A stretch of DNA of 64,000 nt from a virus, in the IMG/VR virus record IMGVR_UViG_3300014835_000095; one strand, written 5' to 3'. The position numbers and the translations under genes are program-made. Of the stretch, positions 1 to 55,654 are shown piece after piece. A model generated the notes under the pieces. The model ran no database searches. It saw only the letters and a list, made by a program, of their open reading frames with translations, and was not told the origin of the DNA. Every line of letters starts with the position of its first letter. The stretch's first letter is position 1.

Positions 1-693
1 ATGTTCTCCTGATAAATCTTTTTCTAGCTGATCATTATGAGCAAGAAATCCATCATGTTTTATACCATAATATGAATCCTTTTTATAGGCAGTATGACCT
101 TTATCGTTTATATGTGGCTGGAATGTTGCCCTTGCTATCTCTTTTCCTGTATGGTCGTGTAGATAAGATACAACAGTACCGTGTTCAACTTCATCTGGTA
201 AATAATGTTTATTAGAACCATTCTCTATATTTTTACATGAACCCTGTTCCCAGCTCTGGTTGTGTGATGTCTGTCCAGCAATCCCTTCTGGAGATCTTGT
301 AGTTCTAACAGATAATCCAGTAAATAACTTACTCTTCCTGGTATTATCGCTCTTATATTCATTCTTTAGCGATTCTGGAGCATTAGTCTTATCTAGCATC
401 TTGTCTATTCTAGGAACAGCGGTATTTCCTTTATCTCTAGTTAGGTTCTGTTTATAGTTATCGGACGATATTTCATGACCTAAATGTCGTTCTACTGCTC
501 TGTGGGTCTCTGATTTATCCTGTGTATCTAATAGCGGCTCATGTTTATCTTCTACACCCCTTCCAAAATAATGATCAGTTGCCTTTGTTGCTGATGGAGT
601 TCTTTTAGCCCATGCAGCAACCTGATCTTTTTCGTTTTGATTTAATGTCTCTTTTAGATAGACATCTCTAATATATTCTTTAAATGTTTTCAT
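1..693 (-). CDS. Putative virion-internal protein, 3'-truncated at window edge
   Basis: Not in ORF track; hand translation from ATG 693 gives MKTFKEYIRDVYLKETLNQ..., apparently open to position 1; overlaps upstream stop (TGATG); resembles 29492..30814. Confidence 0.75.
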   Translation of the reverse strand, partial: MKTFKEYIRDVYLKETLNQNEKDQVAAWAKRTPSATKATDHYFGRGVEDKHEPLLDTQDKSETHRAVERHLGHEISSDNYKQNLTRDKGNTAVPRIDKMLDKTNAPESLKNEYKSDNTRKSKLFTGLSVRTTRSPEGIAGQTSHNQSWEQGSCKNIENGSNKHYLPDEVEHGTVVSYLHDHTGKEIARATFQPHINDKGHTAYKKDSYYGIKHDGFLAHNDQLEKDLSGEH

Positions 694-1571
694 CATTGAT
701 ATGAATTCCTTTTAGCTTTTACATACAATTTATTGACTTCATCACTGTATCCATAATCAGTAATTACAGGGTGTTCTTTTCTAGTAACTGGATGTTTCCA
801 AACTCCATAATTTGCCAATCTTAAATCACCGGGATGATTACCTGTATTATATATAAAATCTTGGGTGTTTTCAAATAAAGGATGTTGTCTAATATGATCA
901 CGCTCTGCTTCAGTTGTTGCACTCCCAAATCTTTTCTCGCCATGTGCCTGATAATGATCGTGCTGTAAAGTATCAACAAATTTATTAAAATCTAAACCCT
1001 TTGGATGAGAAGCTATTTTAGTTAAATCTTTGAATTTTGCACCTGTTAATTTGTCGGCATGAGCCATTTCCAACCAATGATTTTGGTCGTGATTCTCAAA
1101 TACTGGAGCAGTAACACCATCAGGATTAGAGGTATAGCTCCCATCCTCATTTTGATGTAACATAGAATAGTTATGTGTAGTAAAATGGTCAGATTCTACA
1201 CGATTCTGATGCTCACCTAATAAATGAGTATCTTGAGTGTATTTATCTAAAGCACCAGGAAATGCTATTTTAACAGCAGTATGTTGTTTTGTGTCCTGAC
1301 CATCAACATTAATATCTTTTGGTGTGTGTGGAAAGAATACAGCCCGACTAGAACCCTTTTTCGGTTTACCATCAACTAAACCTGTATCAATATCATTTTT
1401 AGTAAGTTCTCTAAATTTCTTAGTGAAATTGTTTAATTTATTTTGTGTTGTTTTACCGGGCTTGTATTCTCTATCATTTTCTGGTGCATCTAATATACTT
1501 TGTAATTCTTTATGTATTTCTTCTGTAATAATATTACACATCAATTCTTTAAATGAAATCATTTTATTCAC
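693..1571 (-). CDS. Protein-kinase-like fold protein with capsid-targeting-like N-terminus
   Basis: KKGSSRAVF loop, AVKIA lysine, QNRVE, HPGDLRLANYG catalytic loop, DYG; M4-ISFKELM start motif. Confidence 0.6.
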   Translation of the reverse strand: MNKMISFKELMCNIITEEIHKELQSILDAPENDREYKPGKTTQNKLNNFTKKFRELTKNDIDTGLVDGKPKKGSSRAVFFPHTPKDINVDGQDTKQHTAVKIAFPGALDKYTQDTHLLGEHQNRVESDHFTTHNYSMLHQNEDGSYTSNPDGVTAPVFENHDQNHWLEMAHADKLTGAKFKDLTKIASHPKGLDFNKFVDTLQHDHYQAHGEKRFGSATTEAERDHIRQHPLFENTQDFIYNTGNHPGDLRLANYGVWKHPVTRKEHPVITDYGYSDEVNKLYVKAKRNSYQ

Positions 1572-2079
1572 CTATATGGGGGACAATTTCTCTATCCCAA
1601 TAATCTTTATATCCAATCCTACTTGAAATCGCTTTGGTGGGTTGGCCAGTTTTATCCGCAATATCAACAATCGCTTTCTGATATTGCTTAGTTCTTAATT
1701 TACTCCGATCTACATCAAATCCTTTATAATCATCACCAACAAATGCCCATTTTTGATGATAAATTTGTGGAATCTTTTTAGGTTTTGTATATTTACATCC
1801 CCCTTCTGGTGTTATCATTACAGAATCTTTTATTTGTGGCTCATGTGCAGTATCCCAATCCGGAGAATTTAAGAATGAACTATTGTTTGTTACTTTATTG
1901 TATTTTACTATAGTATAATTAAAATCAGGATAATTCTTATGCAATGCAATCAATGCTGAATTGTGAATATCCTTTGGAATAGCTACTTGATGGACATAAT
2001 TCTTATGTACGTATAAATCATGCCCCATTTTTTTACCAATAGCTCTATCTTCTAATAAAAATTCTTTAAATGATTTCAT
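1564..2079 (-). CDS. Putative internal head protein; resembles C-terminal part of phosphorothioation-associated methyltransferases
   Basis: MKSFKEFLLE start; SFLNSPDWDTAHEP...IYHQKWAFV (recalled similarity, unverified). Confidence 0.45.
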   Translation of the reverse strand: MKSFKEFLLEDRAIGKKMGHDLYVHKNYVHQVAIPKDIHNSALIALHKNYPDFNYTIVKYNKVTNNSSFLNSPDWDTAHEPQIKDSVMITPEGGCKYTKPKKIPQIYHQKWAFVGDDYKGFDVDRSKLRTKQYQKAIVDIADKTGQPTKAISSRIGYKDYWDREIVPHIGE

Positions 2080-2693
2080 TTTAATCTTGTTCCAATAACA
2101 GTATTTTTAGCTAATCCACTAATTTTCTTAAATTCAAAATCATTACCACCATGTTTTTGCATATGTTGCAACAAAGAATTACCATCAAAACCTCGTTGAT
2201 ATACATCAGCATTTTTCTTATGTACAATTATAGCATTTTCTTCTTCAGTTGCTGGAGTAAAGTTTTTTACAGTTGCAACATCACCTTTCCATCCTCGTGT
2301 ACCTACAACCACATGCCCACCAACTTTAACTTTTGATAATATATCTCTAGTAACTTCATCACGTTTTTTTGGAGGTAAAACATTTAATACGTTATGAGAT
2401 ACAACAGCATGATATCCAGTTGGTAATTCATCTGAACTTTTATATGTAGGAGTCCAGTTTTTAGCAAATGGTTCATAAGAATGAACAACATGATCATCAC
2501 CAAAAACTTTCTGCATAGCTTCAGAGCCTTTACCCATACCAGCACCATAATCTAATATTTTAGAATTAGAATCTAATTTTGGTAATAGTTTTTCCGCCGT
2601 CTTTCTATAAGTACCCGCTGTGGTAGCAACTTGAGTAGTTTCTGATCCAGGCTCATGCTGAATTGATTCTATTAATTCTTTGAATGATTTCAT
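2076..2693 (-). CDS. Class I SAM-dependent methyltransferase with capsid-targeting-like N-terminus
   Basis: ILDYGAGMGKG motif I; VVSHNVLNV; MKSFKELIE start. Confidence 0.75.
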   Translation of the reverse strand: MKSFKELIESIQHEPGSETTQVATTAGTYRKTAEKLLPKLDSNSKILDYGAGMGKGSEAMQKVFGDDHVVHSYEPFAKNWTPTYKSSDELPTGYHAVVSHNVLNVLPPKKRDEVTRDILSKVKVGGHVVVGTRGWKGDVATVKNFTPATEEENAIIVHKKNADVYQRGFDGNSLLQHMQKHGGNDFEFKKISGLAKNTVIGTRLK

Positions 2694-2723
2694 TGATATT
2701 CCTTATATGTTATAATAACTTGT

Positions 2724-2731
2724 TATTTATT
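2724..2731 (-). promoter_or_regulatory. T4-like late promoter core (AATAAATA)
   Basis: About 30 nt upstream of the 2693 operon; T4 consensus is TATAAATA. Confidence 0.55.
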
Positions 2732-2836
2732 TAGTACCTCTTGAATTCTAATAAGGCGACATACATTTATTTAATTGACACATTAATAGTTTAAATGATT
2801 TCATATTATATCTCGTAAATATGATTATTTATATAT

Positions 2837-20514: not shown

Positions 20515-20925
20515 TTAAAGATCATTATCAGCACGATTTTCTGAAAAATAAGGATTAAATTTTCCACCAGGATAACGTGATTCTAGTTTACGAACATTCT
20601 CTGCAAATACTTCATTTAGATTAATCCCCAATGCTCTAGTAGCATTAGTTAAATACCATGCAATATCAGAAAGTTCTCTCAGCATATGGTGATGGATTTC
20701 ATCTGAAAATGGTTTACCCTGGAAGATCATTTTCTTGACGATTTCTGTAAATTCTCCAGATTCTGCTGATAATCCCACTGCAGCAGTTAATAACAAAGAC
20801 ACATTACAGCCATCACCCTCCAACTTTCTAATGCGATCAATCATTAATTCAGTTGAGTTTGATTCGTCTGAAGTAACAGCTTCTACAAATTTGGAATATT
20901 CTTTTAAATCAATTTTTTGCATCAT
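20515..20925 (-). CDS. MazG-like NTP pyrophosphohydrolase
   Basis: GLSAESGEFTEIVKK, ELSDIAWY, NVRKLESRYP. Confidence 0.9.
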   Translation of the reverse strand: MMQKIDLKEYSKFVEAVTSDESNSTELMIDRIRKLEGDGCNVSLLLTAAVGLSAESGEFTEIVKKMIFQGKPFSDEIHHHMLRELSDIAWYLTNATRALGINLNEVFAENVRKLESRYPGGKFNPYFSENRADNDL

Positions 20926-21012
20926 TATATATCTCCAAGAGTTAAGTATTCATTATATCTTATATATCTAAATTAGTCAATATACTCCCAAGCTTACATC
21001 CAAGTCGTCAAT

Positions 21013-21630
21013 TTAAGACATGTCACCATCACAGTTTGACCAAAAAAAGTAAGGATTTTCTTTAGTTAAAAAAGATTCTATTGAATGAATAGTTCTATCT
21101 GTTAGATCAACCTCAAACACTGTATTAGGTTCTAAACTTTCAGAATTGGCAAATTTAGTTGAAGATATATCCATTTTGTTGTTGATGAATAAAGGGCATA
21201 TTTCATTGCGAAAAAGGTATAGTTTATTTTTTCTATACAGCACACAAGCAAACGATCCATCTATTACAGAGAGAACAGACCAACCTTCTGTAATTATCCT
21301 TTGAAGCAACCATTCGGTATCCCAAACATTTTTATCAAGGTTGTTTTGTTTAATAATACCATTGTGCCATAACAAAACATCTTCTATCTCCGATGGATGA
21401 ATGTTATTTGTGTTTGTAGTAGGTGCTTGTGCATGACCAATATAGAACATACCATCTATATGGTTATCTAGGTATTCCTTTTCAAACTTTCCCGAATACT
21501 TGTTTAGTTGTTGTAATTCACTATTCGTATTGAAAGAACTTATAGAGGTACTAATTTCACCTCTATAAGAATTCAATTCAAATAGTGCTATAGTAGTTTC
21601 TTTACTAAACGAACCAACGATAGCACACAT
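21013..21630 (-). CDS. Class II glutamine amidotransferase (Gat) adjacent to QueC
   Basis: N-terminal MCAIVG, RG, GHAQAPT, HP, LWHNGII, DTE. Confidence 0.85.
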   Translation of the reverse strand: MCAIVGSFSKETTIALFELNSYRGEISTSISSFNTNSELQQLNKYSGKFEKEYLDNHIDGMFYIGHAQAPTTNTNNIHPSEIEDVLLWHNGIIKQNNLDKNVWDTEWLLQRIITEGWSVLSVIDGSFACVLYRKNKLYLFRNEICPLFINNKMDISSTKFANSESLEPNTVFEVDLTDRTIHSIESFLTKENPYFFWSNCDGDMS

Positions 21631-21632
21631 AG

Positions 21633-22385
21633 TTATTCTTTGATAAGATTAAACCAAGGGATAGCCAATGAATAGGGAATAGGATCTATCTCTTTAACAT
21701 CAGCAAAGTTTTTAATCCTTTCTGCACAAGACGGACATTTTCCACAAGATCTACCTTTGTCGTCAGGATTATAACAAGTTAAAGTAAGTGACATTAAATG
21801 TAATTCTCCGTCCAATTCTCGTAGAACTTCCAATTCCTGTTTTTTACTTAACAAGTTAAATGGAGCAACTAACTTGATTTTAACTTTACGATTTTCAGAA
21901 AAAATAGAATTCATCTTTTCTACGAACCTTGCTGTAGTATCCCAATAACCATATTCATCATGAACTTGTAATCCTGTTACAATAGTATCAACACCTTGTA
22001 CCTCAGCATATGCCGCTGCAATAGACATCAATATCATATTACGATTAGGAACATAGGTAATAGGAGTTGCATCACCAATAACATCTTGGATAGTAGGCAT
22101 ATCAATACTCTTATCTACATTTGCAGAGAAGCCTTGAGAGATATCACCTAGAAAGGAAGCATCTACTATCTTATGGTTCACATGAAGTCTTTTTGTACTC
22201 TCTTTAGCCTTTTCAATTTCAAACACTTGTTTTTGACCGTAGTCAAAAGTGATAGCAGAAACATTCTTAAACCCATACTTTTCAACAGCCAATCTCATTG
22301 CAATAGTAGAGTCCATACCACCAGATAAAACTACAACACAACCTTTAGTTTCTGGTAATAATTCTAAAATTTCATTTATATTCAT
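21633..22385 (-). CDS. queC: 7-cyano-7-deazaguanine synthase
   Basis: VLSGGMDST, FDYGQK, TYVPNRN, TLTCY, CGKCPSCAER. Confidence 0.95.
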   Translation of the reverse strand: MNINEILELLPETKGCVVVLSGGMDSTIAMRLAVEKYGFKNVSAITFDYGQKQVFEIEKAKESTKRLHVNHKIVDASFLGDISQGFSANVDKSIDMPTIQDVIGDATPITYVPNRNMILMSIAAAYAEVQGVDTIVTGLQVHDEYGYWDTTARFVEKMNSIFSENRKVKIKLVAPFNLLSKKQELEVLRELDGELHLMSLTLTCYNPDDKGRSCGKCPSCAERIKNFADVKEIDPIPYSLAIPWFNLIKE

Positions 22386-22404
22386 ATTATATCCTAGTTA
22401 AACT

Positions 22405-23727
22405 TCAAAAAAAACTATCTAAGTTAAAAATCATACTATGGTCACTTTCAATTCGTTCAATTCTATTAGATTTTAGATAATTAATAACTTTACTTCTATG
22501 ACTATTATACCACAAATCTCCAGAATTACAATGTTTTTCTAAATATTTTATTATTTGACATCCACTTATTTTTGAGGATTCATACTTATAATCAACATCA
22601 TCAATACACTTATCAATAACACTAATGAAATTTTGAACAGAATATAAACTAGCACAAAGTCTTACAGCTTGACAACAGTCTATATTATTTTGATCTTTAG
22701 TAGGGGATAGGTATAAACTTTTTGATGTAGACAAATCTTCAGTCACAATATGATTCCATTCATCCCTAGTAACATTCAAATGTTTTTTGATATGTTCTTC
22801 AAATCTATCATACACTTTTCCAAAAATCTCTTTAGATTTTGTACTACGTGATTTCGTACCAAAGTTAAACACTTTCAAATTTTCTTCTATTACTCCACCC
22901 ATTATAAATCTACTAGAATGACTTGTTGAATCATAACTGATAGTGTAATCGGAAAACATTCCGTTTCGTTTTAACATGATGATTGGTAGAAGTCTGCTCA
23001 CAGACCCATAACCTAAGAAATGTAAATGTTTTCCCATTTCAGGAGGAATGTCTAAACAATCAAAAGCATAACATGAATCTAAAACCTCTAAAATACCAAT
23101 ACCAATAGCACTACCGGCAATAGCAAATCCCCCAACCTCTTTATAATTTTCGGGTGAAATTTGACTCTTAATAGCCTCAAAGTAATCAATGAAATCTTGT
23201 TTTGAGTTACCTTGAATTACTATTAATGGTTTTGTATGAAATAATGAAGTATCTCTGTTGTTTTTAAAATATTCAATTTGTTGTTGAACATATTTTCCTG
23301 AAGTGATACCACATTCTATATTCCTAGAAACTTCAAATTTTTTTACAGACATGTCTATTTTACCAGAACCAACCCCAACAATTTTAATAGGAATACTATC
23401 AAAACTCATTGCTATATGTGATGCCTGTGCTTGTACTTTAAAAATATCTTCAGCAATTTTGGGTGTTATAGATTTACCTTGATGCATCATTTGTAACCCA
23501 CCGGAATCCGTATGAATAGATTTTATACTATCACTATAAGGAGTAATCCAGTCAACAGCACTTTTCTCTGTCAAAGCATTATATAACAATCCAAGTTTAT
23601 GGGAATCTCTATGCCCATTAGTTTGGGCTAAAATGTCTTTGGCTAATTCAACTAAAACTGGTCTATCAAACCAAGGTTTAGTTTGTAATTTAGTCATAGA
23701 CACACCGGACATAATATATTCAAACAT
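22405..23727 (-). CDS. dpdA: TGT-fold DNA deoxyguanine transglycosylase (DpdA-like)
   Basis: DSGGLQ, SFDSIP, VIQG, HLHFLG, SYDSTS; embedded in the que cluster. Confidence 0.8.
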   Translation of the reverse strand: MFEYIMSGVSMTKLQTKPWFDRPVLVELAKDILAQTNGHRDSHKLGLLYNALTEKSAVDWITPYSDSIKSIHTDSGGLQMMHQGKSITPKIAEDIFKVQAQASHIAMSFDSIPIKIVGVGSGKIDMSVKKFEVSRNIECGITSGKYVQQQIEYFKNNRDTSLFHTKPLIVIQGNSKQDFIDYFEAIKSQISPENYKEVGGFAIAGSAIGIGILEVLDSCYAFDCLDIPPEMGKHLHFLGYGSVSRLLPIIMLKRNGMFSDYTISYDSTSHSSRFIMGGVIEENLKVFNFGTKSRSTKSKEIFGKVYDRFEEHIKKHLNVTRDEWNHIVTEDLSTSKSLYLSPTKDQNNIDCCQAVRLCASLYSVQNFISVIDKCIDDVDYKYESSKISGCQIIKYLEKHCNSGDLWYNSHRSKVINYLKSNRIERIESDHSMIFNLDSFF

Positions 23728-24413
23728 TAAATACTCCGTACAATAGACATAAATTCAGACCTTACCATTGGATCTGTTTTAAATACACCACCTACCTTAG
23801 AAGTAATAGTCCTTGAACCTACATCTTCAACGCCTCTACTTTTAACACAAAAGTGCTGTGCATCTATTACTACTGCAATATCATCAGTACCTAAAATATA
23901 TTGAAGAGCATGGTAAACTTGTTCAGTTAGTCTTTCTTGTATCTGAGGACGTTTAGAGAAATATTCAACTACTCTATTGATCTTAGATAACCCTAATACT
24001 GTATCACTAGGAATATAGGCAACAGTAGCAAAACCGTCAATCACTACTAAATGATGTTCACAGTTAGATTGAACATTAATGTTCTTCTCTATAACCATTT
24101 CATCATATTGCATCTTGTTATTAACTGTGGTACACTTTGGGAATGCTTCATAGTCTAACCCCCAAAATATTTCCCCTACATACATTTTGGCAACTCGTTT
24201 AGGTGTATCCATTAGACTATCATCAGATAGATCTAAACCCAATGTTTCCATAATATCTCTAAACTTGGTTGAGATAGTATCTATCTTATTTGATCTGGAT
24301 ATGCCATTAGGAACCATAGGTGTCTCGACACCTTTAGATACCAGGTGGTTGTGTATTTCTAACCCTAAAGCAGCGTCGCATTTTATTTTATTGTGACTCA
24401 TTTTACACTCCAT
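23727..24413 (-). CDS. folE: GTP cyclohydrolase I
   Basis: DTPKRVAKM, SNCEHH, LGLSKINR, PQIQERLT, HFCVKSRG. Confidence 0.97.
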   Translation of the reverse strand: MECKMSHNKIKCDAALGLEIHNHLVSKGVETPMVPNGISRSNKIDTISTKFRDIMETLGLDLSDDSLMDTPKRVAKMYVGEIFWGLDYEAFPKCTTVNNKMQYDEMVIEKNINVQSNCEHHLVVIDGFATVAYIPSDTVLGLSKINRVVEYFSKRPQIQERLTEQVYHALQYILGTDDIAVVIDAQHFCVKSRGVEDVGSRTITSKVGGVFKTDPMVRSEFMSIVRSI

Positions 24414-24436
24414 AAACTGTTAATGTTATTTACTGC

Positions 24437-24961
24437 CTACCCAGAATAGCTACAATGGCTCTTTTTAGTTTCCCACAACTCCAACGATTCAACTTTAGCG
24501 ATATCTCCTATTTTAGATTGTGCGTATATTTTTAAATACTTACAGATGTTTTCGCTTGTTGGTACAAAATCAACTAATACAAAACTATTGCGATGCAACG
24601 ACAGATTAGTATCCTCAACATTATACGCTTCATTTAGATTCATAAAGTTCCAAGTTGTATCTGGCACCTTAGATCCTGTAATGAGTTCAAAGTTTGGATC
24701 ATTAATATCAATCATAAACTTATGATCCAGAACATCATCTACAAACTGCTTCATGAAGTTAAGATTCTTAAAATCAGTAACCATTTGGCTATGGTCTAAC
24801 TCGTCTGCTCCCAAAAACACCTTAATGGTATAACTATGACCATGTAGATGTTTACAAGCACATTCCGTAGATAAACTCAAATCCGGTCTATCTAGTTTCT
24901 GAGCCCATACACGATGGCCCATTTCAAAGGAAAACTCTTTATCTATAATCCATTTACTCAT
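24437..24961 (-). CDS. queD: 6-carboxytetrahydropterin synthase
   Basis: FEMGHR, CKHLHGHSY, DHKF, PTSEN, LWETKKS. Confidence 0.93.
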   Translation of the reverse strand: MSKWIIDKEFSFEMGHRVWAQKLDRPDLSLSTECACKHLHGHSYTIKVFLGADELDHSQMVTDFKNLNFMKQFVDDVLDHKFMIDINDPNFELITGSKVPDTTWNFMNLNEAYNVEDTNLSLHRNSFVLVDFVPTSENICKYLKIYAQSKIGDIAKVESLELWETKKSHCSYSG

Positions 24962-25836: not shown

Positions 25837-25863
25837 CGATTTAATTTATGAGTTATTATAACA

Positions 25864-26325
25864 TCACTTATGGTTGGTGTCAACAAAGAATTCCCACGGA
25901 TAAACGATCCAAACAGGATCTGTTTGCTTGTCTATTTTCCAATGATAGAAGTCTGTCTTTATGATACTACCCACATTATATGTGAGAGTAGCAATTTTAA
26001 TGTCAGATGTTGATATGTGCCAGTTATGTAAAATCCAATGTAAAGTCTCACCTGTGTCGTTTATCTCGTCCATAATAAGGATATTCTTGCCGTATTTAGC
26101 ATGTATATCATCAATGTCTAAAGTTTCTTGGATAGTGCCATCTCGTAGTTGAACTGTGACAATCTTACATGGTATGTTGGATATCTTACTAAACAAAGTA
26201 GCTGGTATTGAACCCCCATTAGCAATGCCTATAATAACATCCGGTTTCCATTCTGTGTTATTAATTTGTTCGTGTATGTCTTTTACAGACATTTCTATAT
26301 CTGTCCAACTATAATATTTTTTCAT
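25864..26325 (-). CDS. Type I purine phosphoribosyltransferase
   Basis: IIGIANGG, ILIMDEINDTGETL PRPP motif, WIVYPWE. Confidence 0.88.
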   Translation of the reverse strand: MKKYYSWTDIEMSVKDIHEQINNTEWKPDVIIGIANGGSIPATLFSKISNIPCKIVTVQLRDGTIQETLDIDDIHAKYGKNILIMDEINDTGETLHWILHNWHISTSDIKIATLTYNVGSIIKTDFYHWKIDKQTDPVWIVYPWEFFVDTNHK

Positions 26326-27599: not shown

Positions 27600-27758
27600 G
27601 AGTTATCCACTTAACCCACTACAGATATATTATAAGCCTGTTTGGAGCAAAAGTCAACCCCAAAAAGTAAATAAATATTATCATTTAATCAGGAGCAATA
27701 ATGTTATCATTCAAACAATTTTTAAAAGGAGTCTACCTGGTTGAAGCTACAGCTAAAC
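27600..27758. repeat. Long direct repeat, copy 1 (divergent promoter cassette plus gene start)
   Basis: About 160 bp nearly identical to about 52853-53011. Confidence 0.9.
27628..27656 (-). promoter_or_regulatory. Near-consensus sigma70 promoter driving the primase/que cluster
   Basis: TTGACT-17-TATAAT; identical copy at 52882-52910. Confidence 0.85.
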
Positions 27759-28771
27759 ATTTTCCCTTTCTAGATGCCGATAATGAATATCACAAAAAGT
27801 TGATTGATGCTTATAATATGGGACATTCCGCCAATGATCTAGCGGTGCCGAGGAATCCTAGTCAGATAAAATCTATAGAGCAACTTGAAGATGTAGTTCA
27901 GCCACATCTGAAAAAGATTAATCAGAAAGAACAAGAAGATAAAGATGATAAAGCATCCTTTGATCGTGGGGATGCAACTTTAGTCCACCATGATCCAGAA
28001 TCTAAACTCAAGATTTATCGTGTAGACAGTCAACCCGGATCTGTTGCAGCATTAAAAGATATTGGTAAAACTCCACCTTGGTGTACTGCAAAGCGATATG
28101 CCTTAGAAGATGTAGTGAGAAAATATGCTCCAGGTGGTAATGCTTTTATTATTCATAACCCCAAAGCAAAGGAGCCAAATATGAGAGTTATGGGGATTTA
28201 TGGCAGAGAGCATGGTAATACTAGACAGGATATACAAAATCATTATATTGATGATGCAAAATGGAATCAGACACGCAGAGAATTGGGTCTTGATAAAATA
28301 AAATATTTACAGGGTTCTATTGGTAGTATTCCATTGAGTAATGAAAATAGAGAGAAATATGAGAATGAATTATCCAATAGCATTAAAAATAATACTGCTA
28401 AATCTGAAGATATAATACATGCCATTCACAACGATTATCTGTCAAATAATCTTAGAGACAATTTACTTTCCAATACAAATACAAGTCATGTTATATTGCA
28501 TAATCTTGCCGTACATAATGAAGATTCCGAAGTACATAGCGATATAATAAACCACCCAAATGTAAATACTAAAGCATTAAATGCAATTGCAAATAATAGT
28601 TATGATTCAGAAGTGCATAAGATGTTATTAAACCACCCAAAGATAAATCATGTTACTATAAATAATATTGCTAAAAACACAGATGATCCGGAAATATTTA
28701 ATGCAATCTCAAATCACCCTAAAGCTAGCGAATATGCAAAAAAAGATGCTCTTAGGAGTTTGAATAGATAG
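27701..28771 (+). CDS. Putative internal virion protein, WCT domain plus LRV/HEAT-like repeats (paralog 1)
   Basis: MLSFKQFLKGVYLVE; PWCTAKR; about 26-aa repeats with HP; AATAAATA at 27670. Confidence 0.8.
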   Translation: MLSFKQFLKGVYLVEATAKHFPFLDADNEYHKKLIDAYNMGHSANDLAVPRNPSQIKSIEQLEDVVQPHLKKINQKEQEDKDDKASFDRGDATLVHHDPESKLKIYRVDSQPGSVAALKDIGKTPPWCTAKRYALEDVVRKYAPGGNAFIIHNPKAKEPNMRVMGIYGREHGNTRQDIQNHYIDDAKWNQTRRELGLDKIKYLQGSIGSIPLSNENREKYENELSNSIKNNTAKSEDIIHAIHNDYLSNNLRDNLLSNTNTSHVILHNLAVHNEDSEVHSDIINHPNVNTKALNAIANNSYDSEVHKMLLNHPKINHVTINNIAKNTDDPEIFNAISNHPKASEYAKKDALRSLNR

Positions 28772-28970: not shown

Positions 28971-29495
28971 CTATGATGCAATAATGCATTCCATCTTCAT
29001 TAGATCGATAACTCTTTTTGGTGTCTTTTTTCTACGTATAATTGCCGTTAATGGTTTTTCTGCATAAGACACTTGAGACGTATTATTTGTGGGGGTATTC
29101 TCACCCTCTAAAAATTGCAACACAGCAAGTTCTTCTTCTACTAATACTAAATGATTAGAGTCCAATTCCTCCACCAAACCAATTAATCGTACTTCCATGT
29201 CTTCCGCATTATCTGTGATATAAGATTCTTTTATTAACATATAAGCTGCTATTAAATTCTTAGTGTATGTATCTCCTCCTGGCAATTTCTTTAATAATCT
29301 CTTAAGATTAAATACTAATCTATGCAGATAAGTGTAAGAATTCTTTTCATAGGATTTAGTTAAGGTATTAGCTTTTCTGAGAACCTTTCCACTATCATCA
29401 ATAATCCCATATTTAAAAGCATCTGATTTGTTGAATGGAGTCACTAAAAGTTTTAATATTCTATATGCAATAGCATTGTCTATTAATACACTCAT
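28971..29495 (-). CDS. Conserved T4-like hypothetical protein
   Basis: AYRILKLLVTPF..AFKYGIID..YTYLHRLVFNLKR. Confidence 0.75.
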   Translation of the reverse strand: MSVLIDNAIAYRILKLLVTPFNKSDAFKYGIIDDSGKVLRKANTLTKSYEKNSYTYLHRLVFNLKRLLKKLPGGDTYTKNLIAAYMLIKESYITDNAEDMEVRLIGLVEELDSNHLVLVEEELAVLQFLEGENTPTNNTSQVSYAEKPLTAIIRRKKTPKRVIDLMKMECIIAS

Positions 29496-30814
29496 ATTTT
29501 ATGTCCATATGATTTTAATTTTTTAATATTTTCTGAAGACAGTTGTACCATACCTGCCCTAATCCCCCTTAACAATCCAAGATGAGATTCCTTGGCTTCT
29601 GTATTATTTACAAGATTATTGACATTTTCGGGTGACAATTTGAGCATATCTTCATTATTTGCACTAACTATATTACTTTGAGCTTCTGCTGAATTTGGAT
29701 GGCTTGTAATGTGGTTGATACTTTCAGGTGTTAATTTTATATGCCCTATTCTATGATACATTGCCATGAATTGGTGGGCTTGTGCTAATTTAGGGTTTTT
29801 AGCTATATCTGTTATATGTGTGGGGGATAAATAATCATTTTCTATAGCATGATTGATGTCCATTATATTTACAGTGCCATCTTTAATTGCGGATTGGAGT
29901 TTCTTGATATGCGAATCTTTTACTTCTGGTGCTAACGGCATTCTTATTTTAGATTTTGGCTCATCCCTTTGATATACTCTTGGATCCAGAGTATATTCAT
30001 TATGTTTCATGGGATAGTTATTTTCTAAATAATCAGCCGTAGTTTTATGAAAACTTTCATGAGCATCATCCTCTCCATATCTTTTATTAGAAGCTCTTAA
30101 TATAGTGTGGATGATTTTGCCGTTTTTATCTCTAGCATGCCAAGGATAGATAGCAACACGTCCGCGAACTTTTGTAGGATTAGTATGATCCATTTCATCG
30201 TGGTCCATTAAAAATGCAACACCGCCTCCACTTTCCACATGACCATCTAGATTATCACTAGCATCTGTATCATCTCGAAGCATATCAGTAGGTTTTCTCC
30301 ATCCAGAGCAGCTAGCCCAAGGTTTTCCCTCTGTCATCCCCTGAGATGCATTTGGATGTCCGGTTAAGATCACCTTCACATGCTCGAGGTTTAGACTAGG
30401 TGCAGTCCATCTTCGTTCTCCAACTTTATTTTTAATATCATAATCATCTGAAACTTCTGTTTTTTTAGATCCAACATTAGAATATTCTTTTAATAAATCA
30501 GGATTAGATTTTAATACACCAGATAATTTAATTTTTCTACCATCAGGATGAATCGCCATTTTTGGATTAGACGCATCTCTCTGATAAAATCCCATATGAT
30601 TTCCCACTCTATCATATATCGGACTATTTTTGAGGTGATTGGAAATCTTAAGGTCTAATGGATTTTGCAGTGGAATTTCTACATAATCTCGTCCTTTTGG
30701 TATGATTTTTGCAAAATTCTTTTTTATGGCTGCAGTGTTTAATTTTTTATCAATAACTATCTTCTGCTGTGCATCGTCTAGGTGTTCTTTAATGAATTGT
30801 TTATATGTTTTCAT
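29492..30814 (-). CDS. Putative internal virion protein
   Basis: MKTYKQFIKE start; WASC motif; INHAIENDYL shared with the plus-strand paralogs. Confidence 0.75.
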   Translation of the reverse strand: MKTYKQFIKEHLDDAQQKIVIDKKLNTAAIKKNFAKIIPKGRDYVEIPLQNPLDLKISNHLKNSPIYDRVGNHMGFYQRDASNPKMAIHPDGRKIKLSGVLKSNPDLLKEYSNVGSKKTEVSDDYDIKNKVGERRWTAPSLNLEHVKVILTGHPNASQGMTEGKPWASCSGWRKPTDMLRDDTDASDNLDGHVESGGGVAFLMDHDEMDHTNPTKVRGRVAIYPWHARDKNGKIIHTILRASNKRYGEDDAHESFHKTTADYLENNYPMKHNEYTLDPRVYQRDEPKSKIRMPLAPEVKDSHIKKLQSAIKDGTVNIMDINHAIENDYLSPTHITDIAKNPKLAQAHQFMAMYHRIGHIKLTPESINHITSHPNSAEAQSNIVSANNEDMLKLSPENVNNLVNNTEAKESHLGLLRGIRAGMVQLSSENIKKLKSYGHKI

Positions 30815-31161: not shown

Positions 31162-31746
31162 TTATGATACTATTAATTTAACTGCAACAGAAGTAATACT
31201 TACTGCATTTGCCGCAGAAACAATAACTCTGTATGTAGCCCCATTAAATCCTGTAGTATTACTAATGTCTAATGTGTTAGTAGTTACACCGGAATAAACC
31301 CCAGTATTAGTCAAAATCTCATAATTCTTCGTGGATGTATTCAATTTTTCCCATTGATACGATAAAGCTCCACCACCTGCTGAAATATTAGCAATTGCTA
31401 CTAGTGTTGTAGCAGCTGGGGCAATAACTGTTCTGTTAGTTGGCTTGGTAGTAAATGATAATACATATGAACTAGGTAATTCAATACCCGCATCAATAGT
31501 TTGTCTATCGCCAGAATCTGTAGCTGGTGTTTTCATGGATACTAGATATTCTGCTTTATGTCTAGTATTACCAAATGAGTCTTTATATTCATTATATAAC
31601 CACCAACCTGGGCCAGTAATGCCTTTCTTAATAGAATTTGGGTTTTTAGCTTCTGTGTTATCTATAAAAACTGCGTTTGCTTTTTGTTCTTCATTTAGAT
31701 ATTTTGGGATACCAGCATCGGTATCTACTTTTTTCCATAGTGCCAT
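31162..31746 (-). CDS. Virion structural protein with C-terminal Ig-like domain
   Basis: MALW start; LSYQWEK...TLDIS...GATYRVIVS. Confidence 0.7.
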   Translation of the reverse strand: MALWKKVDTDAGIPKYLNEEQKANAVFIDNTEAKNPNSIKKGITGPGWWLYNEYKDSFGNTRHKAEYLVSMKTPATDSGDRQTIDAGIELPSSYVLSFTTKPTNRTVIAPAATTLVAIANISAGGGALSYQWEKLNTSTKNYEILTNTGVYSGVTTNTLDISNTTGFNGATYRVIVSAANAVSITSVAVKLIVS

Positions 31747-31774: not shown

Positions 31775-32110
31775 TTATTTCCAGATACTTAATTTAAATG
31801 GGTTCATATTTTTATCATTATCTTTTGTAATTGTAGCCTTTTTTCCATTTATATCAAAATTAGTTTTAGACTCATTACCGGAATCTGTTGAATATATGTG
31901 ATCTGTAAAATCAGTTTCTATTCCTTGTATGTTTAGATATTTTTGCATGTTTTGTAATGCTGAATTATATGTTGGATGATATGAGTGAAATTGATTGATA
32001 GAGTCATATACATCATCCCCATCAAAAGTTTTAGATTTTAATATTCCTCTTATATTATCTCCACCTAAAGCTGCGGTATTATCATTAATAAACCGTTTAA
32101 ATGTTTTCAT
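31775..32110 (-). CDS. Putative internal virion protein
   Basis: MKTFKRFIND start; in late cluster. Confidence 0.55.
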   Translation of the reverse strand: MKTFKRFINDNTAALGGDNIRGILKSKTFDGDDVYDSINQFHSYHPTYNSALQNMQKYLNIQGIETDFTDHIYSTDSGNESKTNFDINGKKATITKDNDKNMNPFKLSIWK

Positions 32111-32571: not shown

Positions 32572-32765
32572 AAAACTTCCTTATTAAGTTATTTATTGAT
32601 TCTAATCTTCCCATCTTCTTCTAGTTGCAATTTTAGTATAATGACATAGATTCAGATAATATTGGAGCTGATAAATGATGCAAAAAGTTATATAAAATTG
32701 GATGGTTTTGTATTTGCTTGTTCTATTAAAAAATCTTTAAATGTAATCATAAAGGGCTCCTCGCA

Positions 32766-33548
32766 TTAAGACGGTTTTGGATGCAATCTGGTATTTTCTA
32801 TTTCTCTAAGCTTTGGTACCAATTTTAAAGCTATTCTATTTATAAGTGTTTTTTTAGTTTCAATAAATCGTTCTACTCTTTCTTTTTGTGCTATAGATAA
32901 AGTGTTTAGTGGCTGTTTTATAAACTTCAATTTCAACAATTTAATAGCAGTGACTCTAGCTCTATGGTTTATTCTAATGGGAGATGATTTCATTTTAAGT
33001 GCAAGTTTTAATTTTCTTTCTCTGGATCCCTCCGTCTGTTTAAAACGAATAGATGCTCGGATTCTTTCTATTCTAGATAATACTTCATTTAAGACATCCT
33101 CTGATTCGTGAATACCTTTCAAATCACTCAATTCTGATATATGTTTACCTTTAGAATCTATAAGATGTAATTCATCATCCCTATATGTATCAATAATATC
33201 ATCTAAAGAGTCGACACCTGAAATCAAATCATCAATCTCTTTGTCTGTAAGATCAAAATCTACTATTGATTTGTCTTCATTTATATGAATACCCGCTGAT
33301 TTTATTATATTTATCATATTAGTTATGATTTGTTTTTCTTTAGGGGTTTTTTTATAGTCTTTAGAATAGGTTAATGCTAGATTAATCAATTTTTCGGGGG
33401 ATGTATTTTTGGAGATAGTTGCTGGAGATAAACCCAAAGATTTAGCAATGATCTTTGCTAATTTAAGTTTGTCTTCAGTATTATGGCTATTTATGTGTGG
33501 TTCTGTTGATATTTTTAGTGATTTCATATTTAAGTATCTCATATTCAT
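32766..33548 (-). CDS. Late hypothetical protein, possibly prohead-core-like
   Basis: Acidic middle, LxE sites, basic C-terminus; TATAAATA upstream. Confidence 0.55.
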   Translation of the reverse strand: MNMRYLNMKSLKISTEPHINSHNTEDKLKLAKIIAKSLGLSPATISKNTSPEKLINLALTYSKDYKKTPKEKQIITNMINIIKSAGIHINEDKSIVDFDLTDKEIDDLISGVDSLDDIIDTYRDDELHLIDSKGKHISELSDLKGIHESEDVLNEVLSRIERIRASIRFKQTEGSRERKLKLALKMKSSPIRINHRARVTAIKLLKLKFIKQPLNTLSIAQKERVERFIETKKTLINRIALKLVPKLREIENTRLHPKPS

Positions 33549-51087: not shown

Positions 51088-52233
51088 TTATTTATCTTTT
51101 GGCCCAACTACATTTAGTGTCGGAGATCCAAAAGGACCACTTTTTGTTTTAGTGCGTATACCCATCATATATGTATGCTGTGATGGATCAAACGCACTAT
51201 TACCAATAGGTTTTTTTAATGCATAGATACGAGTAGTATTGCCAGAAACAATAGCATGATACCCGTGTACATGTGAGGTTAATTGATCATCTAGTTTAGT
51301 ATTCCCAGATATATGCGTAGTCCATGATATATTAGTCGTAGGTTTTCTTTTAGTATTTCCGACAATAGTTTTTGCTCTCATAATAGGATATATAGAGGTG
51401 GGTTCAAGCCAGCTTTTTATAAGTTTCTTAATTGGGTGGTTTATAGCATTTTCATGATTTATAGCATTTTCATGATTTATAGCACTACCAATTTCAATTG
51501 CTGTATTTCGCAGCATTGCTTTTTTTGACTTATGAATTTTTTGAGATATGTACCTTACAAAATCATCCTCATCATCTATCATAGATTTAAAAAGCTCATT
51601 AGATTCTTTATTAGTTCTTTTTTTTGCCGAGGTAGGCATGTAAGTCGCTGTTTCAGCGTAATGCTGATCTTGAGGTAAATCACCCACTTTATAAGCATGG
51701 TTTCCAATAATGCGATTTAAATCCCCCATCCCTGGAGATCTTGCTGTAGTTTGCCCACGATTAGATAACATTTTTGCACTACATCCAACATATGCAGTAT
51801 GATCACCACGATCATCTTTTATATTATACCCTAGCATCATATCGGCATTACTATTAGGATCATCTTTTAATTTAGTTTTTGAGTCTGGTGTCCATATAAC
51901 ACTATGTACGGATACTCCTTTAGCCTTCAATTCAGAGACTTGCGTATTGACAGAGTGTATAGATCCATTATAAATATGACGTATTTTATCATCAGTTATT
52001 CCCTGTTTAACAGTATTATACTGATTTTGTATAGATGTGACATGGTCTGGAAATTTCAGATTTGGAATTGGTTCATTGGGTCCAAGGTGAGCCAAAGCTG
52101 GATTTTTATCTATATGACTTTGCCACGCATGTAGCATAAACATCTCATGGAGCTTACCATGTTTTTCTCCATTTCCACTAGTTGATGCTTCTAATAGATA
52201 CATCTCTTTTAAGAATTGTTTGAATGTGATCAT
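51088..52233 (-). CDS. Putative internal virion protein, possible PD-(D/E)xK nuclease
   Basis: MITFKQFLKEMYLLE; HE...ADMML...GCSAK; CATAAATA at 52260-52267. Confidence 0.6.
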   Translation of the reverse strand: MITFKQFLKEMYLLEASTSGNGEKHGKLHEMFMLHAWQSHIDKNPALAHLGPNEPIPNLKFPDHVTSIQNQYNTVKQGITDDKIRHIYNGSIHSVNTQVSELKAKGVSVHSVIWTPDSKTKLKDDPNSNADMMLGYNIKDDRGDHTAYVGCSAKMLSNRGQTTARSPGMGDLNRIIGNHAYKVGDLPQDQHYAETATYMPTSAKKRTNKESNELFKSMIDDEDDFVRYISQKIHKSKKAMLRNTAIEIGSAINHENAINHENAINHPIKKLIKSWLEPTSIYPIMRAKTIVGNTKRKPTTNISWTTHISGNTKLDDQLTSHVHGYHAIVSGNTTRIYALKKPIGNSAFDPSQHTYMMGIRTKTKSGPFGSPTLNVVGPKDK

Positions 52234-52466
52234 AAATATACCCTATTACTAAATACTTCTATTTATGGCATAACTATGATTCTCTTTAAACAATTCTTAA
52301 AAGATACTTTTTGACGTAGGATACTGCTAGAACAAATATTAATATAAGAAAAATGGATTATGTATAAACATTGGTAATACATAATCCACATAGATTAAAC
52401 GATTATCTTATAAATAATCACCCTAATTGTTATTTATAATTACAACTAAAGTAACATGACCAGTTT

Positions 52467-52852: not shown

Positions 52853-53011
52853 AACTAATCTACTTAACCCAGTACAGATATATTATAAGCCTGTTTGGAG
52901 CAAAAGTCAACCCAAAAAAGCAAATAAATATTATCATTTAATCAGGAGCAATAATGTTATCATTCAAACAATTTTTAAAAGGTGTCTACCTGGTTGAAGC
53001 TACAGCTAGAC
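52853..53011. repeat. Long direct repeat, copy 2 (divergent promoter cassette)
   Basis: Nearly identical to about 27600-27758. Confidence 0.9.
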
Positions 53012-54174
53012 ACTTTCCTTTTTTAGATCCAACAAATCAACACCATCAAGATTTGGTTGCTGCTTATAACACCGCACATTCTGCTAATGATCCATTGGTG
53101 AAAAGACACCCTGGGCAAATAAAATCTATAGCTCAGCTTGAATTAGAAGTAAAGCTACACCTTGATAAAATTCATCAGGAAAGGCGGCATGCTACAGACG
53201 ATAAAGAAGCATGGGATAGAGGAGATGTAAAGCTCATTCACCACAATACAAGAACAGGATTTAAAATATATCAACCATTTAATCAACCTGGAGTTATGGC
53301 TGCTTTATCTGATATTGGGGGAAAAAGACCTATTTGGTGTACCGGGAAACGTGATGCTGGTGCCGACATGGTGCATCATTATGATAAACCTAAACATCAA
53401 GGTGGCCCGAGTATGAGATCTTTTATATTCCATGATCCATCATCTAAAAATAAAGATCATAGGATTATTGGATCTTTTGGTGAGTTTAAAGAAGGATTAA
53501 ATAATTTCAACGGTGTCGGGAACACAGAAGTCCAACACGATGATTGGTCCAAGTATATAAAAAAACATGGATTAGATGATATTAAAGAATTGTGGGGTAA
53601 AGTTAGAGGGATTTCATTATCAGATGCTAATAAAGAAAAGTATCAGAATGAATTATCAGATAAAATAAAAATTGGAAATATAAATCCTAAAGATTTTAAT
53701 CATGCTATAGAAAATAATTATTTAACAGATGAACATGAGAAAAACTTCATTTCTAATAAAAATATTAGTTCTGATACATTAGATACACTAATAGTTCACC
53801 CAGCATTACATAAATTAATTATCTCCCATCCAAATGCTAGTGAAAATACTTTACGTACCATTGCTAGTGATACTAAAGACCCAGATGTACATAAGATGAT
53901 GATAGTAAAATCTAATGTTAGTAATATAGTTTTACATAGGATTGCCCGCAATACATCAGACCCAGAAGTACATAAGGCAATAATAGCAAAGCCTACTATT
54001 AATGATGATATTTTGAATGCTATTGCGTATAATACATCAGACCCAGAAGTACATAAGGCAATAATTTATCACCCCAAGGCTGATGGCGATGTTTTAGAGT
54101 CTGTCTCCGATAATACAGATGATCTAGAAGTGAAGAAATTGTTGGCAAAGAGATTGGAAAAAATAAAACACTAA
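52954..54174 (+). CDS. Putative internal virion protein with LRV/HEAT-like repeats (paralog 2)
   Basis: MLSFKQFLKGVYLVE; IWCTGKR; DPEVHKAII repeats. Confidence 0.8.
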   Translation: MLSFKQFLKGVYLVEATARHFPFLDPTNQHHQDLVAAYNTAHSANDPLVKRHPGQIKSIAQLELEVKLHLDKIHQERRHATDDKEAWDRGDVKLIHHNTRTGFKIYQPFNQPGVMAALSDIGGKRPIWCTGKRDAGADMVHHYDKPKHQGGPSMRSFIFHDPSSKNKDHRIIGSFGEFKEGLNNFNGVGNTEVQHDDWSKYIKKHGLDDIKELWGKVRGISLSDANKEKYQNELSDKIKIGNINPKDFNHAIENNYLTDEHEKNFISNKNISSDTLDTLIVHPALHKLIISHPNASENTLRTIASDTKDPDVHKMMIVKSNVSNIVLHRIARNTSDPEVHKAIIAKPTINDDILNAIAYNTSDPEVHKAIIYHPKADGDVLESVSDNTDDLEVKKLLAKRLEKIKH

Positions 54175-54388
54175 CTTATTGATGGATAAAGAGAAAAATC
54201 AAATAAGTACATTTAAATCATATTGTATAAAACCAACCCATAGAAATGTACTAATTGTGCAATTTAACATACTTTCATGTCTGTAAGTTATTGATTTAGA
54301 ATGAGTTAAAATTGAGTTTTTGTGGTTGTGGCAAAATATTTAGGTGGTTAACAGGTATAAATACTATTATTTAATCGGGGGGGTAATA

Positions 54389-55654
54389 ATGTTATCATTC
54401 AAACAATTTTTAAAAGAAGTATATCTAGTTGAGGCTACAGCAAAACATTTTCCGTTTTTGGATCCAACAAATCAACACCATCAAGATCTTATTGCTGCTT
54501 ATAATAGCGGCCATTCTTCTAATGACCCAGCGGTGCCAAGACATCCAGGTCAGATTAAATCTATAGAACAGCTACAAACAGCAGTTAAGCCACACCTGGA
54601 TAAGTTTCTTCAAAAAAGACAGGAAGGTGTTGATGATAAAACGGCATTTGAGTCTAGTGAAGCAAAACTAATTCATCATAATCCTGACACTGGAGTTAAG
54701 GTCTATCAGGTACATAGTCAAGCTGGATCATGTGCTGCAGGGGCTTCTAGTACATGGTGTACAGGAAAACGCAAAGCTGCTACGGATATGGTAAAATATT
54801 ATGATGAAGGAGGGAATAACTCCTTTATATTGCACTTTCCAAAAGAGTCCAAAAAGCATTTAAGAACTATTGGTGCTTATGGTAAATTTAACGGTAGAGA
54901 TAATTTTCAAGATGCTGAAAACCATACTGTTCCAGAACATGAATGGAGCAGATTAAGATCAGAACATGGATTAGATAATATTAAACATTTACAAGGTGTT
55001 GTTAGAGGAATTCCATTATCAGATGATAATAAAGAAAAACATAAAAAGGAATTATCAGATAAAATAAAAAGTGGCAATATTAAATCCGAAGATATCAGCC
55101 ATGCTATAAATAATAATTATTTAACAGATGTACATAAGATGATGATAGTAAAATCTAATGTTAGTAATATAGTTTTACATAGGATTGCCCGCAATACATC
55201 AGACCCAGAAGTACATAAGGCAATAATAGCAAAGCCTACTATTGATGATGGTATTTTGGATGTTATTGCCCGCAATACATCAGACCCAGAAGTACATAAG
55301 GCAATAATTTCTCATCCTGATGCTAGCAAGTATGTTTTAGAAAAAGTTGCTGAAAATACTGAGGATCCAGAAGTACATAAAGCAATAATTTCTCATCCTG
55401 ATGTTAGCAAGTATGTTTTAGAAATAGTTGCTAAAAAGACTGAGGATCCAGAAGTACATAAGGCAATAATTTCTCATCCTGATGCTAGCAAGTATGTTTT
55501 AGAAAAAGTTGCCAGAAAAACTAATGACCCAGAAGTACATAAGGCAATAATTTCTCATCCTGATGCTGATGGCGATGTTTTAGAAAAAGTTGCCAGAAAA
55601 ACTAATGACCCAGAAGTAAAAAGGTTAGCAGCAGAGAAAATGGAAAAAATATAA
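54389..55654 (+). CDS. Putative internal virion protein with LRV/HEAT-like repeats (paralog 3)
   Basis: Start reassigned to MLSFKQFLKEVYLVE; TATAAATA at 54356-54363; about 7 DPEVHKAIISHP-type repeats. Confidence 0.82.
   Translation: MLSFKQFLKEVYLVEATAKHFPFLDPTNQHHQDLIAAYNSGHSSNDPAVPRHPGQIKSIEQLQTAVKPHLDKFLQKRQEGVDDKTAFESSEAKLIHHNPDTGVKVYQVHSQAGSCAAGASSTWCTGKRKAATDMVKYYDEGGNNSFILHFPKESKKHLRTIGAYGKFNGRDNFQDAENHTVPEHEWSRLRSEHGLDNIKHLQGVVRGIPLSDDNKEKHKKELSDKIKSGNIKSEDISHAINNNYLTDVHKMMIVKSNVSNIVLHRIARNTSDPEVHKAIIAKPTIDDGILDVIARNTSDPEVHKAIISHPDASKYVLEKVAENTEDPEVHKAIISHPDVSKYVLEIVAKKTEDPEVHKAIISHPDASKYVLEKVARKTNDPEVHKAIISHPDADGDVLEKVARKTNDPEVKRLAAEKMEKI

Follow-up and report, generated by a model that had tools for sequence, protein, structure and literature searches.

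A T4-type capsid-targeting tag is predicted on ten genes within 64 kb of an uncultured freshwater T4-like phage

We analysed a stretch of 64,000 nucleotides (nt) from the IMG/VR virus record IMGVR_UViG_3300014835_000095, referred to here as the window, in which ten full-length genes (111-606 amino acids, aa) and two short remnants begin with the same kind of N-terminal peptide tag. The window has a GC content of 31% and the gene content of the replication and nucleotide metabolism region of a T4-like phage, including CobS/CobT-like genes and a gp43 DNA polymerase that is ~43% identical to the polymerases of cyanomyoviruses, the nearest isolates. Near-identical sequence is found in freshwater and lake metagenomes from five studies. 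The tagged open reading frames (ORFs), and the late-promoter-like cores upstream of them, are listed below, where a slash marks the candidate cleavage site that follows the tag.

1..696, minus strand: 5′ part of a tagged gene for a 606-aa protein; tag MKTFKEYIRDVYLKE/T; N-terminal domain, then ~12 LRV repeats.
693..1562, minus strand: tagged 289-aa protein-kinase-like enzyme; tag MISFKELMCNIITE/E.
1564..2079, minus strand: tagged 171-aa protein; tag MKSFKEFLLE/D.
2076..2693, minus strand: tagged 205-aa protein, encoded by the first gene of a four-gene tagged operon; tag MKSFKELIE/S.
2724..2733, minus strand: late-promoter-like core CTAAATAAATA, 36-40 nt upstream of the ATG at 2693.
2751..2804, minus strand: 18-aa remnant ORF, found by profile; starts MKSFKLLMCQLN.
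27668..27677, plus strand: late-promoter-like core TAAATAAATA, 29-33 nt upstream of 27701.
27701..28771, plus strand: tagged 356-aa protein; tag MLSFKQFLKGVYLVE/A; PcfJ-like N-domain and LRV repeats.
29492..30814, minus strand: tagged 440-aa protein; tag MKTYKQFIKE/H; C-terminal repeats weakly LRV-like.
31775..32110, minus strand: tagged 111-aa protein; tag MKTFKRFIND, with Asp for Glu at position 10.
32590..32595, minus strand: TAAATA core heading the operon that runs from 32571 to 28971.
32688..32750, minus strand: 20-aa remnant ORF; tag MITFKDFLIE/Q; downstream of the late gene at 33548-32766.
51088..52233, minus strand: tagged 381-aa protein; tag MITFKQFLKEMYLLE/A; net charge +13.
52260..52265, minus strand: ATAAATA late-promoter-like core, 32 nt upstream of 52233.
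52925..52930, plus strand: ATAAATA late-promoter-like core, 29 nt upstream of 52954.
52954..54174, plus strand: tagged 406-aa protein; tag MLSFKQFLKGVYLVE/A; PcfJ-like N-domain and LRV_2 repeats.
54356..54363, plus strand: TATAAATA, an exact T4 late-promoter consensus, 31 nt upstream of 54389.
54389..55654, plus strand: tagged 421-aa protein; tag MLSFKQFLKEVYLVE/A; PcfJ-like N-domain and LRV_2 repeats.

A search of the six-frame translation of the window with the pattern M-[KIL]-[ST]-[FY]-K-x-[FYL]-[ILM] returned 11 matches, each at the first methionine of an ORF, whereas first-order Markov simulations gave a mean of 0.01 matches (maximum 1) and residue-shuffled real proteins an expectation of 0.002. 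The same 11 members score 19.5-27 bits in a position-specific profile, the remnant at 2804 scores 11.9, and the next candidate, out of 1186 Met-initiated ORFs, reaches 2.0. The gap between 19.5 and 2.0 bits rules out a chance Lys-rich start as the origin of the tag. An earlier note on this DNA had listed at least ten ORFs with a shared N-terminal motif, and all ten were found here with the N-termini given there; the profile search that it had suggested places the members far above background, and with 11 matches against 0.01 expected the motif is commoner than in random sequence.

The tags are constrained at several positions. All 11 strong tags have F or Y at position 4; at position 7, nine have F or Y and two have L, and position 8 is occupied by I, L or M. 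Glu mostly occupies positions 9-10 or 13-15, and 10 of the 11 contain an (L/I)-x-E prohead-protease site at residues 7-10 or 12-15, the 111-aa protein having I-N-D in its place. Five tags have a long form that ends in YL-x-E, followed in four of them by Ala. AlphaFold models give the tag as a short helix of low confidence that stands apart from the folded body. When phage gp21 (taken from an overlapping contig, L005) was modelled in complex with residues 1-40 of the 381-aa protein, the score was 0.01, which counts neither way.

The closest parallel lies in the internal proteins (IPs) of T4. In the T4 record (NC_000866), ipII and ipIII start with MKTYQEFIAE/A and ipI with MKTFKEF..ITE/A, and tags of the window include MKTFKEY, MKSFKEF, MKTYKQFIKE and MITFKQFLKE. 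The likeness to the T4 IP capsid-targeting sequence (CTS) to which the earlier note had pointed is therefore one of near identity. The first 10 residues of IPIII suffice for encapsidation, mutagenesis assigns targeting to residues 4 and 7 and processing to residues 8 and 10, gp21 cleaves after the Glu of L/I-x-E, and Asp at position 10 stops cleavage and leaves targeting (PMC9026906). The window tags keep all four functional positions. By the T4 precedent, the 111-aa protein should be targeted yet uncleaved.

A CTS of this type would require a matching protease and scaffold, and both are encoded next door. L005, which is 99.5% identical to the window over 8.7 kb and extends it rightward, carries portal gp20, three small ORFs, the gp21 Peptidase_S77 prohead protease, gp22 scaffold, gp23, UvsY, UvsW and a gp55-like gene, with Pfam matches to Portal_T4, Peptidase_S77, T4_CASP (gp22) and Gp23 (ids, in a different order: PF03420 for Peptidase_S77, and PF25623, PF07230 and PF07068). 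An S77 prohead protease and a gp22-type scaffolding core are thus encoded by the same phage as the tagged genes. Its gp22 contains LYLEE in the expected propeptide region, and its gp23 has LFE/T in the region where T4 gp23 has LTE/A. On L005 (6616-9001 and 11384-13354), precomputed Pfam matches place intein or HINT signatures within the split UvsW and within the gp46-like gene of this phage. A second overlapping public contig, L001 (99.8% identity), completes the leftmost gene of the window (L001:5158-6975). Directly downstream of this 606-aa tagged gene, just left of the window and on the same strand as the tagged operon, is a HEARO RNA (RF02033, IscB-associated omega RNA; L001:7028-7257, 106 bits, E = 4.5e-23); the contig ends before any visible IscB ORF beside it.

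In each of the six tagged transcription units, a TAAATA core precedes the first ATG by 24-40 nt; of the untagged genes, 13 of 74 have such a core anywhere within 70 nt. Head genes on L005 carry the same type of core, and early genes there carry TTGACA...TATAAT. The late-promoter cores that the earlier note had placed ahead of the tagged genes or their operons are present, and, together with the gp55-like gene, they predict that the tagged genes are transcribed late. One alternative is that the tag directs proteins elsewhere, to the membrane, into secretion or a degradation pathway, or to some other virion part such as the baseplate. We consider this extremely improbable, as the tag has no hydrophobic signal-like stretch, co-occurs with the S77 protease, clusters beside head genes and matches the T4 head-targeting sequence.

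Homologs of the tagged proteins show how tag, cut site and body are arranged. At least 184 metagenomic homologs of the 289-aa protein were found; among the best 120, 55 start with the tag, and in 104 the conserved body (ELHxEL...) is directly preceded by [LIVM]-x-E; the propeptide measures 12-28 residues. Such an arrangement, in which the start and the cut site are kept and the linker between them varies, is propeptide-like, and since some homologs of this family have no tag at all, the tag behaves as a separable module. Homologs of the LRV family keep L-x-E/A before a conserved TAKHF despite insertions and deletions in the linker. In close relatives the kinase-like gene sits inside the structural module, beside gp23 and a tail-tube-like gene, and two tagged small ORFs (MKSFKEF..LDE) lie between portal and protease at the position of T4 gp67/gp68. 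The neighbourhood of the kinase gene in one relative also includes a homolog of Gad2 (PF26128; L132:17766-18713), which is of anti-defence type.

Gene turnover at the tags bears on a further alternative, in which the shared start is a nucleic-acid cassette (late promoter, ribosome-binding site and leader codons) that serves late translation or recombination and has no part in protein sorting. About 100 nt of upstream sequence and the first ~50 coding nt are nearly identical at 27701 and 52954, although the bodies are only 42% identical; tag codons are A/T-rich; and recombination within tags is evident from the remnant at 2804. This remnant begins with 12 residues, MKSFKLLMCQLN, that exactly match the N-terminus of a kinase-family homolog (P0009), which suggests that the 205/171-aa methylase-like pair was inserted behind a duplicated kinase tag by recombination within tags. 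Near-identical promoter-plus-tag segments ahead of diverged bodies mean that the tag region also behaves as a recombination handle, a role that has been proposed for T-even internal-protein loci in work cited in PMC3012670. A cassette without a sorting function is nevertheless hard to reconcile with conservation at the peptide level, since distant contigs use other codons (for example ATGAAGACGTTTAAGCAGTTT), or with the conservation of Glu10 and (L/I)xE beyond the pattern scanned. Genes internal to operons, without promoters of their own, are tagged as well (those for the 171-, 289-, 606-, 440- and 111-aa proteins), and the tag equals the experimentally defined T4 CTS. We therefore regard this alternative as very improbable and retain the reading of the tag as a CTS.

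Other traces of turnover are found at the same loci. The remnant at 32750 retains its tag and a strong, intact ribosome-binding site, yet ends after 20 codons, and is probably the stump of a deleted tagged gene. Upstream of it, a 260-aa late gene (32766-33548, minus strand) that gave no family match has TATAAATA just 18 nt upstream of its first ATG; translation from an internal start would yield MKSLKISTE..., a degenerate tag-like N-terminus. The two cassettes at 27600-27700 and 52853-52953 each contain, on the opposite strand, a TTGACT-N17-TATAAT promoter-like site that faces the neighbouring minus-strand genes. When contigs from four freshwater runs were compared with positions 44-60 kb, the phage was found in several lakes and assemblies broke at the paralogs; no clear presence/absence polymorphism was seen among these contigs in that interval.

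What the tags precede is varied. The bodies had been described in the earlier note as unrelated, and this stands in so far as there are about six body types and the 289-, 171-, 205-, 111- and 381-aa bodies have no detectable similarity to one another; it does not extend to the 356-, 406- and 421-aa proteins, which are paralogs (42-50% identity), or to the LRV repeats, which are shared by five proteins, these three, the 606-aa protein and, weakly, the 440-aa protein. N-domains of the LRV family were modelled at a predicted local distance difference test score (pLDDT) of 82; Foldseek found no match for them in the PDB, and only uncharacterised, PcfJ-like or DUF4116 entries among AFDB clusters. 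For the N-domain of the 440-aa protein, structural comparison gave weak GNAT-like leads only. The operon from 32571 to 28971 holds the genes for the 111- and 440-aa tagged proteins together with a phrog_613 'head protein' gene (31162-31746).

The AlphaFold2 model of the 289-aa protein (pLDDT 92.7) has a well-modelled protein-kinase fold that is RIO/Bud32-like. All 50 Foldseek matches listed from the PDB have the kinase fold, most of them protein kinases and a few small-molecule kinases. The top folds are Rio1, PRPK/Bud32 and PINK1, the leaders Rio1 and PRPK/Bud32 having a probability of 1.0 with a template modelling (TM) score of only ~0.34. The two lobes, the VAIK Lys, the HxD...N loop and the DFG Asp of a kinase are all present, in the form of Lys98 (AVKIA), HPGDLxxxN (Asp246, Asn251) and DYG (Asp269), and across 80 homologs K98, D246, N251 and D269 show little or no variation. 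PDB sequence searches with the 289-, 440- and 421-aa proteins returned nothing, or designed helical repeats only.

For the 205-aa protein, a Pfam match to Methyltransf_23 (21.7 bits, below the cut-off of 27), a phrog methyltransferase match (E = 0.0037) and a motif-I-like ILDYGAGMG point weakly to a methylase dependent on S-adenosylmethionine (SAM). The 171-aa protein matches phrog_16075 and, weakly, the C-terminal part of TIGR04096, a dnd-associated putative methyltransferase family; PADLOC and NCBIfam gave nothing meaningful apart from this TIGR04096 match, and the ESM Atlas gave no usable match for the 171-aa protein. The two genes adjoin (1564-2693, minus strand) with an ATGA overlap, each with its own tag, and their products may be a split enzyme of which both halves are tagged and packaged. 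The 381-aa protein had no relatives in a word-indexed search, an exhaustive HMMER search or a PDB sequence search. Its ESM Atlas model resembles type II restriction endonucleases, with neighbours in RE_HaeIII-containing viral clusters (TM 0.63/0.73), R.HinP1I (0.47/0.63) and MspI (0.41), and D131...S152-A-K154 is a candidate PD-(D/E)XK motif, picked out by eye only.

The same tag is widespread in aquatic T4-like contigs. An exact-pattern scan of IMG/VR with the first 7.7 codons of the tag matched at least 120 contigs, as loci that are contig pieces of ~9 kb on average. Among the matches listed, all lie at ORF starts; position 10, which the pattern left free, is Glu in 75 of 94 unique N-termini (80%), position 8 is I or L in 82 of the 94, and 141 tagged ORFs of at least 50 aa fall into at least 75 body clusters unrelated by BLAST. 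Pfam matches on representative bodies, one each, include ART-PolyVal/ADPrib_exo_Tox, S-AdoMet lyase, Zeta_toxin/AAA_33, PolyA_pol, CTP_transf_like, NUDIX, GNAT, NT5C and HEAT/LRV. Homologs of the T4-like genes of the window phage, most often gp20 and gp21, occur at 59 of the 120 listed loci, where tagged ORFs commonly lie between gp20 and gp21 or just after gp23. Three of three near-complete tag-bearing IMG/VR genomes encode an S77 protease (PF03420) and carry one or two tags each under a looser pattern; cyanophage S-SCSM1 has one match under a narrower pattern requiring K/Q at position 5, which misses the tag of its ORF91 (see below). With one or two tags in each genome checked, ten tagged genes in 64 kb represent an expansion. 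A tag island like that of the window is found on one IMG/VR contig (L024:5900-9450), where six consecutive tagged ORFs stand beside a gp20 homolog. In one alignment of tagged IMG/VR ORFs (A4), a member matches Pfam Phage_capsid (E = 2.8e-24).

Do the tagged proteins act in the head, or do they leave it? The tag could target the prohead core while the proteins themselves function in head assembly, DNA condensation or core building, or are degraded there, and are not injected effectors. The gp67/gp68-like position of the tagged small ORFs in relatives fits such a role, as do IPIII mutants of T4 with head-assembly defects (PMC9026906), and helical-repeat proteins might have a structural role. Inside a head, however, there is no obvious use for a kinase fold whose catalytic set is intact, and the same can be said of the nuclease- and methylase-like bodies and of the ADP-ribosyltransferase (ART), SAM-lyase, NUDIX and GNAT bodies in other contigs; moreover, in T4 the IPs, Alt and proteins fused to the CTS enter the host by ejection (PMC9026906, PMC9391042). 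We judge a role confined to the head unlikely, and packaging of the tagged proteins as cargo that leaves with the DNA better describes this set of bodies.

Virion proteomics of cyanophages offers a point of contact with experiment. According to the S-SCSM1 report (PMC9602691), the virion proteome determined by mass spectrometry included the NMNAT encoded by ORF91, a finding that puzzled its authors, who noted NMNAT in the virions of other cyanophages. ORF91 (L137:13820-15049) starts with MKSFLQFLKE/A, and homologs of this cyanophage 'cytidylyltransferase'/NMNAT family (T4-GC190; L138-L141) start with MKKFSAFLTE/A, MKKFSTFISE/A, MRSFLTFLTE/A and MKKFSAFLNE/A. The presence of tagged ORF91 in the proteome means that a non-structural enzyme with this tag architecture is a virion protein, which supports the view that tagged enzymes reach virions in a related phage group, and a CTS-like tag would explain the repeated detection of NMNAT in cyanophage virions. 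A 105-aa tagged ORF beside cyanophage head genes is a 'hypothetical protein' in each of the ~60 annotations examined among 135 records, so GenBank annotation does not recognise the tag. In the literature searched, we found no description of the tag outside work on T-even and giant phages, and searches with peptide strings gave nothing relevant.

Taken together, these observations make it likely, in our view, that the shared N-terminus is a T4-type CTS, a cleavable propeptide by which an enzyme-rich cargo is packaged and then leaves with the DNA. The capsid-targeting interpretation put forward in the earlier note agrees with the T4 tags, the S77 protease and gp22, the late cores, the cut sites in homologs and the tagged enzyme in cyanophage virions. 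Packaging and cleavage in the phage studied here are very likely on these grounds; by analogy with T4, injection and effector roles would follow. In the mechanism that we envisage, gp55-type late promoters (TAAATA cores) would drive the tagged genes late in infection, and the first ~10 residues (M-K/I/L-S/T-F/Y-K-x-F/Y/L-I/L/M) would dock each protein on the gp22-based scaffolding core during prohead assembly. The S77 protease gp21 would then cut after the Glu of (L/I)-x-E, at positions 8-10 in short tags and 13-15 in long 'xYLxE/A' tags, and the mature protein, free inside the head, would exit with the DNA at the next infection. The cargo would comprise a protein-kinase-fold enzyme, a restriction-endonuclease-like basic protein, a SAM-methylase-like pair, five LRV helical-repeat proteins whose N-domains are PcfJ-like or belong to no assigned family, and one small protein. 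Sequence or structure shows the tag with its cleavage motif, the protease and scaffold genes, the promoter cores and the kinase fold; that the proteins dock on the core, are cleaved and ejected, and act ahead of phage gene expression we infer from T4.

Several points weigh against this reading. Among cultured phages there is no close relative at the DNA or protein level. Our promoter calls are consensus matches, and TAAATA is common in DNA of 31% GC. At position 10 of the 111-aa protein, Asp stands in for Glu. The conserved [LI]xE before the kinase body could be structural and not a cleavage site, and cargos of 606 and 440 aa would fit through the tail only if slender or unfolded. In S-SCSM1, a small tagged ORF between virion genes, ORF30, is annotated as hypothetical and not as a virion protein although the proteome was analysed; in view of this hypothetical-only annotation, we rejected it as proteomic support.

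Beyond packaging, we entertain a more tentative proposal, which we hold to be possible but somewhat doubtful: that the cargo is a first-strike enzyme kit, consisting of an active protein kinase, a restriction-endonuclease-like nuclease that spares the phage's own, probably 7-deazaguanine-modified, DNA, and methylase-like and repeat proteins; that the tag, the ancestral T4 capsid-targeting sequence, serves aquatic T4-like phages in general as an address label legible from sequence, which would explain NMNAT in cyanophage virions; and that tag DNA doubles as a recombination handle for swapping cargos. The window contains a preQ0/7-deazaguanine cluster (20515-26325, minus strand) with GTP cyclohydrolase I (FolE), PTPS/QueD, a radical-SAM QueE-like gene and QueC, and it is this cluster that makes a packaged nuclease sparing modified phage DNA an attractive hypothesis. 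GATase-, MazG- and PRTase-family genes lie beside it, and a 440-aa gene within it (22405-23727), which has no Pfam match, may encode a DNA transglycosylase.

The mechanism itself was established in T4; the new elements are the expanded, enzyme-rich cargo set of a distant freshwater lineage and the finding, at the level of sequence, that one and the same tag recurs commonly among aquatic T4-like phages. Should it function as in T4, genome sequence would suffice to read off which proteins these phages, among them abundant cyanophages and uncultured freshwater lineages, inject. This would provide a list of candidate host-takeover and anti-defence proteins acting before phage gene expression, and would account for metabolic enzymes in cyanophage virions, an unexplained proteomic observation. 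The natural tags, in 10- and 15-residue forms, may also be of use for loading foreign proteins into T4-type capsids.

The system most similar to that described here is the T4 IP set, which has the same N-terminal decapeptide, (L/I)-x-E site, late promoters and gp21/gp22 machinery, and bodies that share only the tag. The differences are that T4 has three tagged genes, compared with ten and two remnants in 64 kb here; that T4 IPs are small basic proteins, whereas the bodies here range from 111 to 606 aa and several are enzyme-like; that a second, 15-residue form of the tag, ending in YLxE/A, occurs here; and that the present lineage, unlike T4, is uncultured, freshwater and at ~43% DNA polymerase identity to its nearest isolates. 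T4 Alt provides a parallel for enzymatic cargo, being a large, gp21-processed ADP-ribosyltransferase that is carried in the head and delivered with the DNA before phage transcription, and ART domains stand behind the tag in other aquatic contigs; the Alt propeptide, however, is unlike the IP-type tag, and the window has no ART. Phage T7 encodes a protein kinase, gp0.7, that acts on host machinery at the very start of infection, but gp0.7 is an early gene product and is not packaged, whereas the kinase-fold protein here is tagged, predicted to be late, and has RIO/Bud32-type proteins as its nearest folds. To our knowledge, neither a kinase-fold nor a nuclease-like enzyme has been reported as packaged in a T4-like phage before. 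In giant phages (SPN3US and phiKZ-like), many head-internal proteins are likewise cut by a T4-related prohead protease and enter the host, with propeptides that are longer and heterogeneous and with no T4-type shared decapeptide described in the abstracts of the reports (PMC5694885, PMC7411985). The NMNAT of S-SCSM1 has the same tag architecture and was found in virions by mass spectrometry; it belongs to another enzyme family, and neither excerpts of PMC9602691 nor the GenBank annotation reads it as CTS-tagged. Each of the cyanophage and IMG/VR genomes checked has one or two tagged genes, compared with the ten described here.

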